A DNA stretch of 34,076 nucleotides, the filler included, from an uncultured virus (IMG/VR IMGVR_UViG_2049941000_000254) (lineage: Duplodnaviria > Heunggongvirae > Uroviricota > Caudoviricetes). It is 4 parts of one record of this genome, joined end to end, with 100 filler letters (N's around TTAATTAATTAA, not from the genome) between each part and the next. Parts side by side here need not be neighbours in the genome. Positions count along the whole stretch, not along the records: positions 21,453 to 30,750 come from IMGVR_UViG_2049941000_000254; 3 more parts are not named here. One strand, 5' to 3'. The notes under the pieces are model-generated. The model was not told where the DNA came from. It searched no databases and saw nothing but the letters and a program-made list of their open reading frames with translations. Of this stretch, positions 10,129-30,750 are shown one piece after another. How positions within the stretch are numbered: the first letter of the stretch is position 1; each line of letters opens with the position of its first letter. The position numbers were made by a program, and so were the translations under genes.

Positions 10129-10529
10129 TATTTCATCCCGCACATTCTGTCGATAACATCACGCCTCATGCCGTACTTTTGTGCAATGTCGTACCAGCGG
10201 CCACGGGTGGTACTGCATAGCCGATAAGGACCTATACGTTCTTCCGAATAAACAAACTTGAACATGTTGTTTCCAATCGGCTTCACTATGGCCATCTGTC
10301 CATCGGGTGCAACTTCGAAACCGTGGTCAATCATGTCGAGCTTCAGTTGGTGTAATGTTTTCGGGTTGTCGGCATATCCGAACAGCAGGGCAATCCGGAC
10401 GCTAGGCATACACCCTATGAGCAAGCATTTCGTAGGAACGACATGAACCTTGGTCATCAGGCGTTCACGGATACCCATGAGGAACTTGCACACGATTACG
10501 GTGTAAATAATTTTGGAAATAATCTTCAT
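10128..10529 (-). CDS. hypothetical protein; distal part of the gene interrupted by IscB copy 2 (first 5 codons at 12123-12137)
   Basis: starts at the ATGAA abutting the element; joins in frame to MSDVI on the other flank. Confidence 0.7.
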   Translation of the reverse strand: MKIISKIIYTVIVCKFLMGIRERLMTKVHVVPTKCLLIGCMPSVRIALLFGYADNPKTLHQLKLDMIDHGFEVAPDGQMAIVKPIGNNMFKFVYSEERIGPYRLCSTTRGRWYDIAQKYGMRRDVIDRMCGMK

Positions 10530-11839
10530 ATAAATGTATGCAGTGCGGAAACTAACCCATCTTTAGTGGGTGAGAGGAGCACTGCTTCCTCCATTATGTT
10601 GGAGTTGTTATGGCTAATTAAGTTAAGATGCTTATAGTTCACCGAACCAGCAAGGACATGCCCGGAAATATCCGATAGCGAGAAGTATCCCGACTGTCTT
10701 CGGCCATTCACGAAGCAAGGTCTTTCGGCATAAACCACGGAATCCATTAGTCTATATCCATGTACCTCTCGAGGTGCCTGGTTGTTCTTCCGGATTCCAC
10801 CCTTGATGATAGATGCCTTGTGGAGCTGCCTGTTGTTGGAACGAAGCTTGCGGATAATCCAGTAATGCCAGTTGGACTCGGCACCCGGATTACCACTGAT
10901 GCAGCGGGCATCAATCGCATGTTCCTTCGGAAGGCCTGCCTTGATGCGGGTATGCTTAGTGAGGTAGCCGTACGTCTTGTGGCAAGCGATGATATCACCG
11001 AACAGTTCTTTAAGTCGAACGAATACCGACTTCCGCATGATGCCCATCACTGCCGCATCCCTAAAGGAAGTCCCGCGCCTGGGATTCGTGGGGAGTTCGA
11101 TTTCGCCACGGTGATACTTCGCATGACATTCCGAGCACAGGGTGATGAAGTTGTTAGGTGCATCTCCGCCTGTCTTCCTGCTCTCGATGTGGTGGACATG
11201 CAGCTTATTGTCCTTGGACTTGCCCTTGCAGCACTGGCATTTATGTCCATCCCGGAACAACACGTATTCCCTTACGTTAGAAAATCCGAGTTGTTCTCCC
11301 TTCTGGTAGTCGGTCCCCTGAGGCAATGGAAGCCCCTGTTCCTGGGCCTTTAGTAGCTGGGTATCGAACTGTGCAGTCTCGACCGTTATCTTCTTGATAG
11401 GCAAGAACTTGCATATCTTCCGAATCCAGTAGATATGGCAATCCACCTTCTGCCGTATAGAAGGTGCAATCCACCCCGGCTTCTTGGAGCGGGTCCTGTT
11501 CAGGAACCTTGGCTTGCGGTAGCGGGTTTTCCTGTTCCTTCTGGTCCGACGGAACTCCCTTCGCGTGGAGAGCTTCTCCACGATATCCGACCTTAAAAGC
11601 AGTTCTGCCTCGAAAAGTACCTTTTTCTTTGTAGTCGCGGAGAAGCCTACATGCTTCGTCCCCGCGTCTACGCCTAGACTGACCTCCTGCACGCCGTTCG
11701 GCGTGTCGTAAGCAAGCTGGATTGTGAATGGACGGTAATCGACAACGACTGCATGACCTTTCCCGAGCAGACGGCGGACCCTGCCGTACCTGGTGGTAGG
11801 CATCAGAGGCTTGCCGTATTTGTTCAGTATATAGACCAT
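10526..11839 (-). CDS. iscB: IscB RNA-guided endonuclease (PLMP, RuvC, bridge helix, HNH)
   Basis: KPLMPT; RuvC-I LGVDAG; RREFRRTRRNRKTRYRKPRF; RuvC-II TVETA; HNH CQCC...HVHH...N..TLC..CH; RuvC-III HAIDA; catalytic residues look intact. Confidence 0.97.
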   Translation of the reverse strand: MVYILNKYGKPLMPTTRYGRVRRLLGKGHAVVVDYRPFTIQLAYDTPNGVQEVSLGVDAGTKHVGFSATTKKKVLFEAELLLRSDIVEKLSTRREFRRTRRNRKTRYRKPRFLNRTRSKKPGWIAPSIRQKVDCHIYWIRKICKFLPIKKITVETAQFDTQLLKAQEQGLPLPQGTDYQKGEQLGFSNVREYVLFRDGHKCQCCKGKSKDNKLHVHHIESRKTGGDAPNNFITLCSECHAKYHRGEIELPTNPRRGTSFRDAAVMGIMRKSVFVRLKELFGDIIACHKTYGYLTKHTRIKAGLPKEHAIDARCISGNPGAESNWHYWIIRKLRSNNRQLHKASIIKGGIRKNNQAPREVHGYRLMDSVVYAERPCFVNGRRQSGYFSLSDISGHVLAGSVNYKHLNLISHNNSNIMEEAVLLSPTKDGLVSALHTFI

Positions 11840-12122
11840 CTAGTCATCATCCTTTTATTTTAACCTAACTTAATAGGTAATGCAGAGCTTTCGCTCTGTG
11901 GGTGGTCATCGACAATGTTAGGAAGGCTTGTCGTGCCCGCAGCACTGTCCCTACCCATCAGGACTGTTTAACCACAAGCGGCAGGGCGGGGGACTTGACC
12001 GTACATCCCAGGGTGTCGTGACCTTCCTAACGTAGTTCAGGGATTACTCCCTTCACTGAGTCTAATCAACTATGAGCCTGAGTTACCTCAAACTCACGGG
12101 TTTTAGCCCGTGGGTAGTTGAT
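10530..12122 (-). mobile_element. complete IscB/omegaRNA IS200/IS605-superfamily element (copy 2), no TnpA, no target duplication
   Basis: ends defined by comparing copies: starts ATCAACTACCCACGGGCTAAA, ends hairpin...ATTTAT then ATGAA. Confidence 0.9.
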
Positions 12123-12480: not shown

Positions 12481-12590
12481 CTTCTCACCTAGACGATATA
12501 GTCGGTTACTGCGGTTTCAGTGACGGTCCCCTTGCGCCTATAGGCGAAGTGGGCCTGCCACTGATGCAACGGGCAGATCGNNNNNNNNNN

Positions 12591-13079
12591 CGTGCCGTAA
12601 GTAAGCTGGATTGTGAATGGACGGTAATCGACAACTACCGCACAACCTTTCCTGAGCAGACGGCGGACCCTGCCGTACCGTGTGGTAGGCATCAGAGGTT
12701 CGCCGTATTTGTTCAGTACATAGACCATCTAGTCGTTATCCTTTGTTTTTTGAACCTAACTTAATAGGTAATGCAGAGCTTTCGCTCTGTNNNNNNNNNN
12801 NNNNNNNNNNNNNNNNNNNNNNNNNNNNNNNNNNNNNNNNNNNNNNNNNNNNNNNNNNNNNNNNNNNNNNNNNNNNNNNNNNNNNNNNNNNNNNNNNNNN
12901 NNNNNNNNNNNNNNNNNNNNNNNNNNNNNNNNNNNNNNNNNNNNNNNNNNNNNNNNNNNNNNNNNNNNNNNNNNNNNNNNNNNNNNNNNNNNNNNNNNNN
13001 NNNNNNNNNNNNNNGTTCTCAGCAATTTGTTGTTCTCCTTGTTTCAAACTCACGGGTATTTAGCCCGTGGGTAGTTGAT
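12591..13079 (-). mobile_element. iscB: IscB element copy 3: 5' end, omegaRNA (mostly N) and iscB N-terminus (ATG 12728); rest lost at 10-N gap
   Basis: [25 protein letters not shown]...; ATCAACTACCCACGGGCTAAATACCCGTGAG end. Confidence 0.9.
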
Positions 13080-19602: not shown

Positions 19603-19634
19603 CCGTTGACTGAAATCTACTCAAACTTACTCAC
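19603..19634 (-). mobile_element. probable right end of the TnpB element, IS607-like
   Basis: short direct repeats GTAAGTTTG/GTAGATTTC then ...TCAACGG ending in GG; shared with 18912-18936. Confidence 0.55.
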
Positions 19635-21224
19635 GGTAAGCCTTTCGTGATTTCCTATGGTCCGTTTGAACAGGCCATCGCAACGGCATTTTTCTAGGCA
19701 CTTCCTTACTTGCCACCTGAACAAGCTCTTTGGCTGGAAGCACCTATATCCGCTATCCCCTGCTATTTCTAGCAGGTACCCTCTTAACACGGTCGAGGTA
19801 AGGCGGAACTTGATGTTAATTGCACTGTTGTGGTCTGCGTTATCTGTATGCAAGCAGTCCACACACTTAAATTCTTCCTGTGTCTGACGGTTGCGGTCAT
19901 CTATACCGCCGCATTCCGGACACATCTTCGAGGTATATTCTGGCTGGATGAGCGAGAAGCCCAGCCCATAATGTTCCGATATATGTTCTACATCGTCTTT
20001 TAACGATGACAGTCCAATTCGTAGATGCAGCCGTCCTAGGTTAAATCCTTTCTTGTCATCGGCATTTAGTTTGCTTCCCTGGAATCCGGTAAGGTTCTCC
20101 ATCACGATGTGCTTGAACCCACGTTCGGCAAGGTCCTTGCACATTGCAGCTATTCTACGCTTGTTGGATTCGTTCAGCTTCAATGTGATGGATTCTATCC
20201 GCTTCCTGTCCTTACGGGAAATCTTGAAGGCGTCATGTTCCTCGCCTTCCTTGAACCGGGCATCGTAGTTCTTCTGCTTACGGTCGATCTTTAGCAGTTC
20301 ATCTTCAAATTCGGCAATCAGCTCATCATCATGGGGAATGAACTCACCGGTGCTCAACGCGAACATGTTGTGCTTGGAATTGACATCTATCCCGACCGTA
20401 TTCTCATCGGTTATTTCCTCATCGCTCTTGTAACGGTAGCCGTCCCTTGCTAGTACTACATGGATGTTCTTTCCTCGGATCACGATTGTATAGGACGTAT
20501 CCGTCCCGTTGCAGTATCTTTGCAATGACTTGTGGTATGCCTTGTTGTACTTGAACGGCATACATAGTGTGTTCTTGCTGTCGCCACGGTAACCTTGGCT
20601 GAACCAGTCCCAGGAAATTTCGATAAAGTACTCGAACTTTCCAGTCTCATTCCTTCTGGCATCTACGATAGGACGCGTGATTCGACTGCGACCACTGAAT
20701 GTAAGCGATTCAAAGGTAATCTTTCCGCGCTTCTCGTATTCAGAAAATACAGCAGTCCTCCTTGATAGAGCCAACCGTATAAGGCGGTCAAATCCAAACT
20801 TTCTAATCTTTTCCAAGATGGTGCGGTAGAACTTCTGCTTTGTTGCATCAACTGTAGGAATAGTAGATTCAAGCCAATAGACGGATTCTTCCTTACCGTA
20901 TCGCGCAAGCCAAGTCAGCACCTTGGTAAGTTCTGTCTTCTTTGGATGAACTTCGATGGATTTCAGCTCGCCTTTCTTGTGCCCCTTGGCATTTATCTTG
21001 TAGAATGAAGGGACAAGTTCATCGACCAGTTCGAACTCAATCTTCTTGCGGATTGCATCGAACCGGAGCCGATAGGCTCTCCACACATCCTCGATCGCCT
21101 TCTTCAAGTAATGACTTGATAACCGAGTATTGAATGTAGGGTTGAAGAACTTGAACGTTTCGAACTTGCTCATATCCTGGAAGCCGAGCATATCCGAGAA
21201 GAACACTTCGGATATATCGTTACG
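19617..21224 (-). CDS. tnpB: long TnpB-family RNA-guided nuclease (>=535 aa; N-terminus lost in 10-N gap)
   Basis: RuvC-I VGIDVN, RuvC-II IVMENL, YTSKMCPECG...FKCVDC zinc finger, RuvC-III NADHNSAINI. Confidence 0.9.
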   Translation of the reverse strand, partial: RNDISEVFFSDMLGFQDMSKFETFKFFNPTFNTRLSSHYLKKAIEDVWRAYRLRFDAIRKKIEFELVDELVPSFYKINAKGHKKGELKSIEVHPKKTELTKVLTWLARYGKEESVYWLESTIPTVDATKQKFYRTILEKIRKFGFDRLIRLALSRRTAVFSEYEKRGKITFESLTFSGRSRITRPIVDARRNETGKFEYFIEISWDWFSQGYRGDSKNTLCMPFKYNKAYHKSLQRYCNGTDTSYTIVIRGKNIHVVLARDGYRYKSDEEITDENTVGIDVNSKHNMFALSTGEFIPHDDELIAEFEDELLKIDRKQKNYDARFKEGEEHDAFKISRKDRKRIESITLKLNESNKRRIAAMCKDLAERGFKHIVMENLTGFQGSKLNADDKKGFNLGRLHLRIGLSSLKDDVEHISEHYGLGFSLIQPEYTSKMCPECGGIDDRNRQTQEEFKCVDCLHTDNADHNSAINIKFRLTSTVLRGYLLEIAGDSGYRCFQPKSLFRWQVRKCLEKCRCDGLFKRTIGNHERLTVSKFE

Positions 21225-21352
21225 NNNNNNNNNNGGATGCTGCATTTCGCAGGTATCCGGATCAAACGCCATATCCTTGTCATACGGGTCGCGCCAGGTG
21301 ATTGCCATCAGGTCGGCATCGAACTTGATGTCCCTTATAGTCTTCGGGGCAC

Positions 21353-21766: not shown

Positions 21767-22107
21767 ATAAATCCTTTGTCGAGGCGGAAACTCACCCATG
21801 TTTAGTGGGCGAGAGGATCCCCGACATTGGCCCTTTTGGGGAACCCGAACTTAATCGGGTAATGCAGGGGTTGCCCCCTGTGGGTGGTCATCGACAATGT
21901 TAGGGAGGCTTGTCATGAACGCCACACTGTCCCTACCCATCAGGACTGTTTAATGACGCTCGGCAGGGCGGGGGACTTGACCGTACATCCCGAGGTGCCG
22001 TGACCTTCCTAACGTAGTTCAAGGGATTACTCCCTTTCACTGAGTCTAATCAACTATGAGTCTGAGTTACCTCAAACTCACGGGTTTTTAGCCCGTGGGT
22101 AGTTGAT
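21767..22107 (-). mobile_element. non-autonomous omegaRNA-only mini-element (copy 4): both ends plus full scaffold, no iscB
   Basis: 21845-22107 aligns to 11862-12122; terminal hairpin CTCGCCCACTAAACATGGGTGAG follows directly; flanked by ATAAA. Confidence 0.9.
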
Positions 22108-28214: not shown

Positions 28215-28503
28215 TTATACTGTCTGTACATCATTGGCCTCCACTTCCATCGCAGTCTTCATCGCCTCTTTGGCGACTTCAAGGCTGCATTGCGGATCGA
28301 GGTTCATGGGGCCGAAGAGGGTCACGAGGCCCATCACCATCCCGAAGTGCTTCTGCCCGGCAATACGGTAGTCACCGAAATGGTTATCGTACTTGTTCAA
28401 GGCATCTTCGCGGTCCTTGGCATGTACGATGAGGAAAGGTTCCCCGAATGTCGTGTTGTCCGGGTGCCTGGGGTCATAGCACCCTACAAGATATTTTAAC
28501 ATG
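28215..28503 (-). CDS. hypothetical protein
   Basis: GAGGT SD, MLKYLVGCYDP... Confidence 0.55.
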
Positions 28504-29206
28504 CCGATACCTCGATTGCATTGGTACATTTTTTCATAGCTTCATCAGAATCCTTTGCCATGACTGTAATGATTTCCTTGGTGAGATACCTGCCTACCTT
28601 GATAAGGTTCTTCCTTTCACTGCGCTTTCTGGACTTCAGTTCATCGGCATCAAGGTAACGGGTGACCTTGTATTCACGCTCATCACGATCATCCTGGAAC
28701 AGTCTAGTCATCTTGTTAAACTCTTCCTCGGTAATTTCTTTGAACTGCATATTTGCCAGCATATGCAGGTCGAGCCTGTAGTTAACCTTGTCGCCAAACA
28801 GGTCATAACAAGACATTTCAATATATCCGGAACCGGAACTAGTATTGACAGCACTGATATAAGATACGCACAGGAACTTCTTGACTGTTCGGGTAATCTG
28901 CTTGCCCCTATAATGGTAGAAATGCTCATTATACTCGCGTGAATAGATGGATACCGGGTCAACACTGATGAAAAACCCAGTATCATTGTATTCATCGTGA
29001 TATCCAATGACTTCCTTGTCAATCAGGATAAAAAACTTGCCCCGATACTTTTTGAAGAATCGGCCAACAAAGCGTTCGCGGTCGGATGACCAGTAGTTAT
29101 CCTTGGATTTAAACGTCTCGTACTTTTTGTTGATGAACAAGCTATGTGCTTCAAACTTATCAAGCACTCTCTTTACAGATTCTCTGTCAAACATATCATA
29201 TTTCAT
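28496..29206 (-). CDS. hypothetical protein, probable leaderless start
   Basis: TATATT-N6-ATG; 236 aa. Confidence 0.75.
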   Translation of the reverse strand: MKYDMFDRESVKRVLDKFEAHSLFINKKYETFKSKDNYWSSDRERFVGRFFKKYRGKFFILIDKEVIGYHDEYNDTGFFISVDPVSIYSREYNEHFYHYRGKQITRTVKKFLCVSYISAVNTSSGSGYIEMSCYDLFGDKVNYRLDLHMLANMQFKEITEEEFNKMTRLFQDDRDEREYKVTRYLDADELKSRKRSERKNLIKVGRYLTKEIITVMAKDSDEAMKKCTNAIEVSAC

Positions 29207-29212
29207 ACTGGG

Positions 29213-29253
29213 AATATAGCAAAAAAAGCCCCCCGTGGCAACGGGGAGCCTTC
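29213..29253 (-). promoter_or_regulatory. overlapping terminator and promoter
   Basis: GGCTCCCCG-TTGCCA-CGGGGGGC-T7-GC-TATATT: -35 is the hairpin loop, spacer 17. Confidence 0.75.
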
Positions 29254-29278
29254 ATGNNNNNNNNNNGACGCGCCAAAC

Positions 29279-29455
29279 TCAGTCGTACCAGTAGTCCGGC
29301 TTCTTCGAGATGCCGGCAAACCGGTCAAAATCGGATGACAAGAAGTTATCCTTCTTCTTAATCTGTTCGTATTTCTCGTTTCTAGCGTCATCGTGGTTAT
29401 CGAAAGTATCGATTACCCGCTTTACGATTTCTTTGTTAAACATGTCATATTTCAT
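29279..29455 (-). CDS. short chimeric ORF (paralog of the 28496-29206 N-terminus + SKKPDYWYD tail)
   Basis: MKYDMFNKEIVKRVIDTF...DFDRFAGI-SKKPDYWYD*. Confidence 0.6.
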   Translation of the reverse strand: MKYDMFNKEIVKRVIDTFDNHDDARNEKYEQIKKKDNFLSSDFDRFAGISKKPDYWYD

Positions 29456-29461
29456 ATTCTG

Positions 29462-29501
29462 AATATAGCAAAAAAGCGCCCCGTGGCAACGGGACGCCTT
29501 C
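29462..29501 (-). promoter_or_regulatory. overlapping terminator and promoter (second copy)
   Basis: GGCGTCCCG-TTGCCA-CGGGGCGC-T6-GC-TATATT-N6-ATG, spacer 16. Confidence 0.7.
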
Positions 29502-29546
29502 CTGAACAACGAAGTATCTACCTGTGTCGGAAGTGTTTTAAAAGTT

Positions 29547-29805
29547 GGCAGCGCTTTTCCACTACTCAGTCACCACGCAAGGTCTCGTTATGCGATTGGA
29601 CGCCGGCTTTGACGGGCTGGTTACCGTCACGAAGTCCGGCGGGCTCCCTTTCATCCACCTACCCGTTATCCCGGCACGTCGGGGTGTTCCTATTGCTAGG
29701 CGGTTTCTACTCGCTGCTGCTCTCTGACGTTGTTAGTGCCGGTGGAACCATAGCGTCCCGGTCCTTCAATGCGCCGTAGGGACCGGATTGGGCGAGTACG
29801 CTGCC
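29547..29805 (-). ncRNA. candidate unclassified structured RNA (~260 nt); strand tentative
   Basis: closing helices GGCAGCG/CGCTGCC and TACTC/GAGTA plus several internal helices; no credible ORF; followed by terminator. Confidence 0.55.
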
Positions 29806-29821
29806 GAGAAACCTCTCAGGC

Positions 29822-30001
29822 TCAATCATCATACCAGTAGTCAGGCTTCTTCGAGAGCTCGGTCATGCGGCGCTCTCGGGCGACCTTCTTGAGGTCGATG
29901 CCGGCGCACCTGGCGAAACTTTTTGCCGCCTTTGCCTGTTTGTTCCAGCGGGCATTCTTTTGCTCCTGGGTTTCCTCGATATGCTCTTTCTTCTCTTTCA
30001 T
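29822..30001 (-). CDS. small basic hypothetical protein ending SKKPDYWYDD
   Basis: GGAG SD before MKEKKEH... Confidence 0.6.
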   Translation of the reverse strand: MKEKKEHIEETQEQKNARWNKQAKAAKSFARCAGIDLKKVARERRMTELSKKPDYWYDD

Positions 30002-30033
30002 GCTTTCTCCATTCACTGTTAGTNNNNNNNNNN

Positions 30034-30750
30034 ATATTCGTCTGGAGTGCCGTTGTAATATAGCCTTTCCTTGCATGTCTTTCTTGTGGCGCCTACTGAC
30101 ACTGACATGAGCTGCATTTTCTTGAATTCGGCAACGCAAGTAAACGGGGCATCGTATTCGCTTAAAAATGCGTTGATTTTTAAGTCTTTTTTAAGCGACT
30201 TGAAAAGGTCGTAAAATCTATCGTAATCGAACTCGAAATCATACTTGTTCGTTCCCTTGTACGGAATGTCAAAATAGACAACATCAAATTCCTTATAGTC
30301 AATATCGAAAATATCCAACCGTTCCAACCGTTCCAACCGTTCCAACCGTTCCAACCGTTCCAACCGTTCCAGCCGATACAGGCGTNNNNNNNNNNAGCGT
30401 TGCATGGATTCGAGCTTTTGCAGGCGTTCTTTATCCTCGCTATCGTCGGTATTTATCAGCGCGTGGAATTTCCGGTAAAACTTTCGCCGTTGATCGAGCG
30501 TGTCGGCGGTAAGCATCTGCTCCGCAGCGAGCTTATATTCCTCTATCTGTTTTCCGTACATGTACGTCTTGCCATCGTTGCCGAACGAGGTACAATATTT
30601 GTTCACGCAGTCCTGAATGGTGAAGTCCCCGTTTTCAATACGTTGTAGGCTATTTGCGAAATCGTCGCTGGTGCAGACGGGCGGGTGTTCGTATTCAATC
30701 TGCCCCTTGTGAATCAGTACAGCGTCAAGCAGGGCGATCGTGGCGGGGTT
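30034..30750 (-). CDS. D12-class-like adenine DNA methyltransferase fragment with LER repeat insert
   Basis: VVYFDIPYKGT (DPPY-like motif IV), FDYDRFYD, FLSEY, ERLY; both ends in gaps. Confidence 0.7.
30314..30385. repeat. 9-bp tandem repeat (TCCAACCGT x6 perfect + 2 degenerate) encoding (LER)n
   Basis: direct reading. Confidence 0.95.

Follow-up and report, generated by a model that had tools for sequence, protein, structure and literature searches.

A candidate non-coding RNA at the tRNA-island end of a phage lineage from ruminant and pig guts

ROOL and GOLLD, large ornate RNAs carried by phages and prophages, are about 580 nt and more than 800 nt long, respectively. Theta ribozymes are only some tens of nucleotides long, and HDV-like ribozymes of this kind have a nested double-pseudoknot fold and cleave themselves. 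As described in 10.1101/2024.12.08.627333, ROOL and GOLLD are phage RNAs of unknown function that often lie beside tRNA islands and can be very abundant; ROOL was first seen in cow rumen and GOLLD in other metagenomes, and one example of ROOL measures 659 nt. Theta ribozymes are characterised in PMC10879173 as minimal HDV-like ribozymes found beside phage tRNAs in gut phages.

The locus considered here comes from an uncultured virus (IMG/VR IMGVR_UViG_2049941000_000254) and was analysed within a window of 34,076 nt, filler included, comprising four joined parts of one record of that genome. An initial annotation had proposed that a region between a stop codon and a terminator encodes a new large phage non-coding RNA or ribozyme. 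The non-coding character of the region and its lack of an Rfam match were upheld, the region was present in RNA libraries, and there was no evidence for a ribozyme. The element is probably a new phage non-coding RNA, for which both structure and function are candidates only.

Gene order around the element and its homologues

Positions are given in window coordinates throughout, and RNA numbering begins with 1 at window position 29805 on the minus strand. The genes around the element were all on the minus strand, and the locus was composed as follows.

30034-30384, minus strand: methyltransferase-like ORF (phrog_56)
30024-30033: N gap between the methyltransferase-like ORF and geneA
29822-30001, minus strand: geneA, encoding a 59-aa basic protein, directly upstream of the element
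29547-29805, minus strand: the element (candidate non-coding RNA), spanning 259 nt between and including the outermost bases of its closing helix, P1
29498-29546, minus strand: variable spacer of 49 nt from the element to the terminator, homologous to the spacer in L001
29476-29497, minus strand: terminator hairpin, with a U run at 29470-29475 (whole feature 29462-29497)
29279-29455, minus strand: geneB, a chimeric 58-aa ORF
29257-29266: N gap downstream of geneB
29213-29253, minus strand: second terminator/promoter cassette, the same as that at 29462-29497
28496-29206, minus strand: geneC, 236 aa

The space between the geneA stop and the geneB ATG, put at about 320 nt in the initial annotation, was 366 nt long (29456-29821). 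GeneA matched no Pfam or PHROGs family, and its differences from the homologue in L001 were distributed 10/8/25 by codon position, which shows that geneA is coding. A promoter scan identified a promoter-like TTGCCA-16-TATATT, for the next gene, that overlapped the terminator at 29462-29497. The loop of the terminator hairpin in this cassette carries the -35-like TTGCCA, which is followed by TGnTATATT and, a few bases on, by an ATG; such an arrangement would yield near-leaderless messages. The loop motif occurred exactly twice in the window, and the cassette was also present in L001 (3190-3236), L038 and L039.

L001, a contig of 203 kb, was the only relative identified in IMG/VR when geneA, geneC and a 497-aa neighbour were used as queries; L038, L039 and L040 are loci from JGI metagenomes. 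In both L038 and L001 a tRNA-Arg(CCT) gene was situated directly upstream of geneA. In L038 this tRNA occupied 1495-1572 and the element approximately 1020-1278, with geneA in between, while L001 had four tRNAs upstream of the locus; in related contigs the locus comes after a tRNA island. No tRNA was identified in the window by ARAGORN, and an N gap was present at the corresponding site upstream of geneA. GeneB proved to consist of the N-terminus of a 229-aa gene, which is whole in L038, and the C-terminal tail of geneA. The junction between them (29310/29311) was seen in the window only; both L038 and a contig from a sheep metatranscriptome (X15) run on as the full gene. The window contained 32 runs of N, several of which were patterned 44N-12nt-44N. 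Given the chimeric geneB, the N gap in place of tRNA-Arg(CCT) and the 32 N runs, the window resembles a scaffold of mixed strains. Within the methyltransferase-like ORF, at approximately 30315-30372, there were about six tandem copies of a 9-nt unit, CCAACCGTT, which read in-frame as ERLERL...; this tract could vary in length.

The gene order in L001 was geneA, a spacer of 50 nt, the same terminator and geneC, with neither the element nor geneB. The element therefore represents an insert of about 280 nt between the geneA stop and the terminator, relative to L001, rather than the product of spacer drift. A spacer motif common to the window and L001 (CTTCCGACA) sets the 3' border of the insert at approximately 29537-29540. 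It had been suggested that a second copy of the element begins after geneB and disappears into the gap at 29257. However, the 12 nt after the geneB stop (GTTTGGCGCGTC) aligned at 9 of 12 positions with the element-less spacer of L001 (GCTTGACGCTTC), and a second copy within the gap is unlikely, given that the terminator follows directly after the gap, the stated length of which may not be its true one.

Homologues of the element were few. There was none in INPHARED when searched by blastn in a distant mode, and none in IMG/VR, either with exact seeds of 26, 19 and 19 nt or when the stop-free plus-strand frame was used as a degenerate query of six seeds; an alignment query based on geneA also returned nothing. 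An 18-mer search of the GTDB species genomes produced 35 stretches, none beyond 25 nt, and these were chance matches only. Five of the 18-mer matches concerned Bacteroidaceae or Bacteroidales, where the matching stretch was conserved among the MAGs and coding-like, and was unrelated to the element. The degenerate plus-frame query did identify at least three loci in JGI metagenomes (L038, L039 and L040), all of which had the order geneA, element, terminator; the terminator was followed by geneC in L039 and by the 229-aa gene in L038 and L040. Among the matches listed, the element was at least 97% identical in the three loci. Part of the stretch was contained in 20 of 21 listed sequencing runs, which belong to 10 gut studies covering cattle, sheep and pigs. 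All homologues among the matches listed, together with the contigs of four runs, shared one gene context and an identity of at least 97%. The likely carrier is a single lineage of giant phages from the guts of ruminants and pigs.

Fold stability and natural variation

All of the complementary pairs named in the initial annotation were found at their places, and several of the helices overlap, as it had noted. In RNA numbering, the pairs are 1-7/253-259, 8-12/239-243, 13-15/232-234, 20-26/42-48, 48-53/203-208, 60-65/147-152, 64-70/129-135, 76-80/126-130, 106-109/114-117, 165-170/200-205, 177-182/191-196 and 212-215/227-230. The element region has a G-C content of 0.60, placing it among the top 1.6% of 259-nt windows, and the RNA strand is composed of A 25%, U 14%, G 31% and C 29%. 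Perfect stems of at least 6 bp numbered 10, compared with 5.8 +/- 2.4 in dinucleotide shuffles (29 of 500 shuffles reached 10), and those of at least 7 bp numbered four, compared with 1.4 +/- 1.2 (26 of 500 reached four); this is a marginal excess over chance for a sequence with 60% G-C.

The minimum free energy (MFE) of a 296-nt stretch was no better than that of shuffled sequences on either strand (z = +0.31 for the minus strand and +0.14 for the plus strand). Just three features were well determined in the Boltzmann ensemble, namely P1 (0.99) and the two hairpins at 20-48 (0.84) and 165-205 (0.89-0.98), and the long-range helices 48-53/203-208, 60-65/147-152, 64-70/129-135 and 76-80/126-130 had mean pair probabilities of 0.09 or less. 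When pieces of the element were folded alone, a domain of 55 nt at 29596-29650 was the sole part clearly more stable than chance, and four other pieces had chance-level stability. The principal structural features are the following.

29799-29805, minus strand: P1 5' strand, GGCAGCG, pairing with 29547-29553 (probability 0.99) and invariant in all contigs
29547-29553, minus strand: P1 3' strand, CGCUGCC, at the common 3' boundary of the RNA contigs
29758-29786, minus strand: hairpin CCGGUCC / 15-nt loop / GGACCGG (RNA 20-48), probability 0.84, local z only -0.84, invariant in all sequences
29689-29700, minus strand: small hairpin CCUA-GCAA-UAGG with a GNRA tetraloop, local z -1.98, 14 of 200 shuffles as stable
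29596-29650, minus strand: predicted three-tier hairpin domain of 55 nt (RNA 156-210), z -3.25, 1 of 200 shuffles as stable, probabilities 0.89-0.98

Natural variation was assessed among eight sequences, i.e., the window, the three metagenomic loci and four run contigs, which revealed 13 variable sites in the element. These were unevenly distributed: the 5' 120 nt (29686-29805) was nearly invariant, with only two of the 13 sites, and the 3' 139 nt contained the other 11 (binomial P = 0.02). The contigs of the four runs, from cattle, sheep and pigs, had no variants in this 5' part. The helices named in the initial annotation, which had been predicted without sight of the variable sites, cover 124 of 259 nt and contained two of the 13 sites (P = 0.017), or two of 11 when only the 3' part was considered (P = 0.047). 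For the centroid fold there was no such avoidance, five of the 13 sites being paired. The two variants that did strike predicted helices (29600 and 29679) both break their predicted pair. Four variants affected the domain at 29596-29650; two of these (29644 and 29616) lie in loops, that at 29608 changes A-U to G-U, and that at 29600 can keep pairing through a register shift of one base. In the small hairpin, the loop GCAA was replaced in L039 by GUAA, which is still a GNRA loop. A contig from a cattle DNA run (X10) at 29615-29839 carried the element, with six differences in 225 nt, joined to a geneA tail whose DNA had diverged too far to align at 80% likeness; a loose end of 29 nt, translated by hand in the geneA frame, resembled ...ELSRTPDYWYDD followed by a stop.

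The comparison of homologues had been proposed as a check for covariation, and none was found: there was no compensatory base change among the eight sequences, because the homologues among the matches listed are all at least 97% identical. With whole-element thermodynamics at chance and no covariation among these homologues, the large multi-helix fold that was initially proposed is a candidate only.

These observations bear on the main alternative explanation, namely that the element is an incidental remnant, a fragment of decayed or foreign DNA that came to rest between geneA and the terminator and is transcribed merely as part of the unit; its GC-rich hairpins would leave a long-lived, functionless degradation product. 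An MFE z-score near zero and a lack of covariation are what such a remnant might display, as are the absence of the element from a relative as close as L001 and its narrow distribution, with nothing in INPHARED, nothing in IMG/VR for three exact and six degenerate seeds, and chance matches only in GTDB species genomes. Comparison with geneA leads the same way, since the element was no more conserved than that gene (8 of 259 sites variable, against 8 of 180; p = 0.31). However, the element was more conserved than the adjacent spacer, which had five variable sites at 29506-29546 (8 of 259 against 5 of 41; p = 0.02), and conservation fell sharply exactly at the end of P1, where none of 37 sites varied within 29547-29583 compared with 5 of 24 within 29523-29546 (Fisher p = 0.007). 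A remnant also sits uneasily with variable sites that avoid the predicted helices, with a 5' 120 nt nearly invariant across samples from three hosts, and with the preservation of the element at 97% identity or more beside the highly diverged geneA tail in run X10. An origin as an incidental remnant is considered rather unlikely.

Evidence from RNA libraries and coding potential

Contigs were examined from four of the 21 listed runs, i.e., three metatranscriptomes (X16, X15 and X18) and the DNA run X10. In the bovine metatranscriptome X16, a contig of 245 nt corresponded exactly to 29549-29793 and thus contained the element alone; its mean word depth was 51, compared with 3.6 for the geneA contig of the same run, although such depth, a single value for each contig, reflects expression poorly. 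The contigs from the sheep metatranscriptome X15 (29550-30011) and the pig metatranscriptome X18 (29556-29920) both joined geneA to the element. Hence, the RNA contigs of three studies began at 29549, 29550 and 29556, those from sheep and pig without a loose end, and their common 3' boundary lay at the base of P1, before the canonical terminator is reached. A contig from the cattle DNA run X10 (29345-29616) crosses the boundary at 29549. That the RNA contigs share a stop where the DNA continues hints weakly at a genuine 3' end. The stretch 29397-29548, which includes the terminator and the start of geneB, was not covered by any contig of the three RNA runs, but a hole between contigs proves nothing. 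The bovine contig ends at 29793, 12 nt inside the P1 5' strand, so that the abundant species may lack a complete P1. The contigs of the four runs had no joints and so gave no sign of a circular RNA. Neither the strand of an RNA nor its true ends or level can be read from contigs, and DNA can be present in RNA libraries; transcription of the element from the minus strand is inferred from the orientation of the genes and terminator, the link to geneA and a composition like that of structured RNAs (A 25%, U 14%).

The joining of element and geneA in X15 and X18 would also be expected if the element acted in cis within the 3' untranslated part of the tRNA-geneA transcript, either as a processing or stabilising structure or as an additional stop formed by P1 and UUUU, with no role in trans. 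The position of the element between a stop codon and a terminator accords with this, as does the sequence CGCUGCC-AAC-UUUU, in which a U run lies just 3' of P1. Yet the bovine RNA contig consists of the element alone, apart from the geneA contig; geneA in L001 uses the same terminator without the element; and 259 nt with an invariant 5' half far exceeds the need of such a role. A purely cis-acting function is improbable.

The initial claim that the region is non-coding was supported by several observations. All three minus-strand frames of the element carry stops, and because these are of all three kinds, no single recoding would open the frames. The open frames available were an ORF of 41 aa on the minus strand (29707-29832), which overlaps the geneA stop (ATGATGATTGA), and two on the plus strand, of 60 aa (29545-29727) and 128 aa (29393-29779). 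None of them matched a Pfam or PHROGs family at E up to 1, and the plus-frame translation had no relative and no shared words in the protein collection searched. The 13 variable sites displayed no codon periodicity (7/4/2, p = 0.23). Any of these ORFs might nonetheless encode a small protein: they are open in both the window and L038, the overlap with the geneA stop resembles that of translationally coupled genes, and the invariant part of the element roughly coincides with the 41-aa ORF. Besides the lack of families and of codon phase, such a protein is made very improbable by the RNA contigs, since the 41-aa ORF is without its start in the bovine one and the 60-aa ORF is without its first bases in all three, and by the fact that chance alone should produce long open frames at 60% G-C.

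It is just as improbable that the element is a small non-autonomous mobile element or a site acting as DNA, such as a recombination site or an origin, instead of an RNA gene: the indel relative to L001, the 7-bp terminal inverted repeats that P1 would represent, the six occurrences of CCGG (2.1 expected) and the IscB and TnpB-like genes in the same window are set against the absence of any other copy from the window or, by BLAST, from the entire 203-kb record of L001, a depth in the DNA run of 3.3-5.6 that is similar to the flanks and shows that the element is not multicopy DNA, the lack of a visible target duplication at its borders and the lack of likeness to the two HEARO copies in the window.

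Proposed role and comparison with known RNA families

The explanation preferred here, to which roughly an even chance is given, is that the element encodes a stable non-coding RNA, about 245-260 nt in length, that is specific to this lineage and acts in trans. The element would be transcribed from the minus strand at the end of a unit comprising the tRNA island, geneA and the element itself; their co-transcription is suggested by gene order, the orientation of the terminator and the RNA contigs that join geneA to the element. The transcript would then be cut or trimmed to leave a 3' end at the foot of the 7-bp P1, as is weakly hinted by three RNA studies whose contigs end there, short of the canonical terminator. 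Protection of its termini and interior against exonucleases would come from P1 and the very stable hairpin domain at 29596-29650, and the RNA would thereby outlast the neighbouring message. The nearly invariant 5' 120 nt may form the functional surface that contacts a partner in trans, whether a host or phage protein or another RNA, and the RNA may serve as a scaffold or decoy during infection, by analogy with what is suspected for other phage RNAs of tRNA islands; both the partner and the effect are pure inference. Were the element a stable remnant after all, it would counsel caution, in that multi-helix drawings from a single GC-rich sequence, and even presence in RNA libraries, are insufficient to define a functional RNA.

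The element was compared with the models of Rfam 15, a check that had been recommended at the outset, and matched no known family, either at gathering scores across the whole window or at E values up to 10 on stretches of 901 nt and 291 nt. The sole low-scoring rows were ctRNA_p42d and ncS54, which fell on terminators, and c4-a1b1 on the plus strand, all of them far below the cut-offs. With respect to tRNA and tmRNA, ARAGORN identified neither in the window, and no T-arm was apparent by eye beside the 7-bp end helix.

Like RNase P RNA of class A (RF00010), the element has a closing helix formed from its two ends, and a site beside tRNA genes would fit; it also contains short runs (GAAGGACCGGG; CAGAGAGCA...AAACCGCC; GAUGAAAGGG) that seemed at first to resemble conserved regions of RNase P. 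The likeness failed on testing and the RNase P reading was rejected: a profile of 27 class A RNAs (of 32 fetched, the other five being omitted as slices without the GAGGAAAGTCC motif) gave no hit in the element with nhmmer --max at E up to 100, and cmscan returned nothing; the profile had two matches at E of about 8 elsewhere in the window. The candidates for P4, CR-I and CR-V, compared with the consensus by eye only, match poorly, and their strands form the local hairpin 20-26/42-48. The P4-like pairing in the element would be a local hairpin, unlike the long-range helix of RNase P.

HEARO, or the omega-RNA of IscB (RF02033), is of similar size (approximately 210-260 nt) and is likewise multi-helix. 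Two true HEARO copies were present in the window (11898-12122 and 21880-22107; 124-128 bits). The element, in contrast, did not match the model, had no sequence likeness to these copies and was not followed downstream by an IscB ORF (RRXRR + HNH), the terminator being succeeded by geneB and geneC without such domains. The first HEARO copy, on the minus strand, accompanies an IscB gene (RRXRR + HNH) at 10526-11839 on the same strand, and a second ORF resembling the N-terminus of IscB (12489-12728, minus strand) enters an N gap, an arrangement suggestive of IscB elements that are tandem or nested in the phage. The second copy, also on the minus strand, is upstream of N-masked DNA and of a 563-aa TnpB-like ORF (19617-21308) with a Cas12f1-like TNB domain that belongs to phrog_506 (transposase). 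HEARO beside a TnpB-type gene is an odd pairing, and the N runs may hide an IscB gene.

With theta ribozymes, as outlined in the description cited above, the element shares its nature as an RNA element of gut phages tied to tRNA genes. It differs from them in its length of 259 nt and in its position, since it is separated from the tRNA by geneA and is not directly adjacent to it, and no HDV-like Rfam family matched the element.

In its context the element is akin to ROOL (RF03087) and GOLLD (RF01998). At 259 nt the element is much shorter than either, ROOL being approximately 580-660 nt and GOLLD more than 800 nt; it matched neither model at permissive thresholds (E up to 10 for ROOL) and, unlike both, has no fold supported by covariation. 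Conversely, it resembles both in being phage-encoded, in having tRNA-Arg(CCT) one small gene upstream in L038 and L001, and in its element-only RNA contig of high depth, high abundance having been reported for ROOL and GOLLD. Tentatively, and with less confidence than attaches to a stable trans-acting RNA as such, the element could found a new family of structured phage RNAs at the end of the tRNA island, less than half the size of ROOL or GOLLD and unrelated to them in sequence, that occurs as a discrete, abundant species in the guts of cattle, sheep and pigs and acts either alone, through catalysis or by assembling from RNA only, or by decoying a host factor. Abundant RNAs without a known role keep appearing beside the tRNA genes of giant gut phages. 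If the proposal is true, a member of about 250 nt would lend itself to probing, mutation and structure determination far more readily than ROOL or GOLLD and, given its small size, invariant 5' half and stable hairpin domain, and the existence of related phages with and without it, the role of such RNAs could become more testable.
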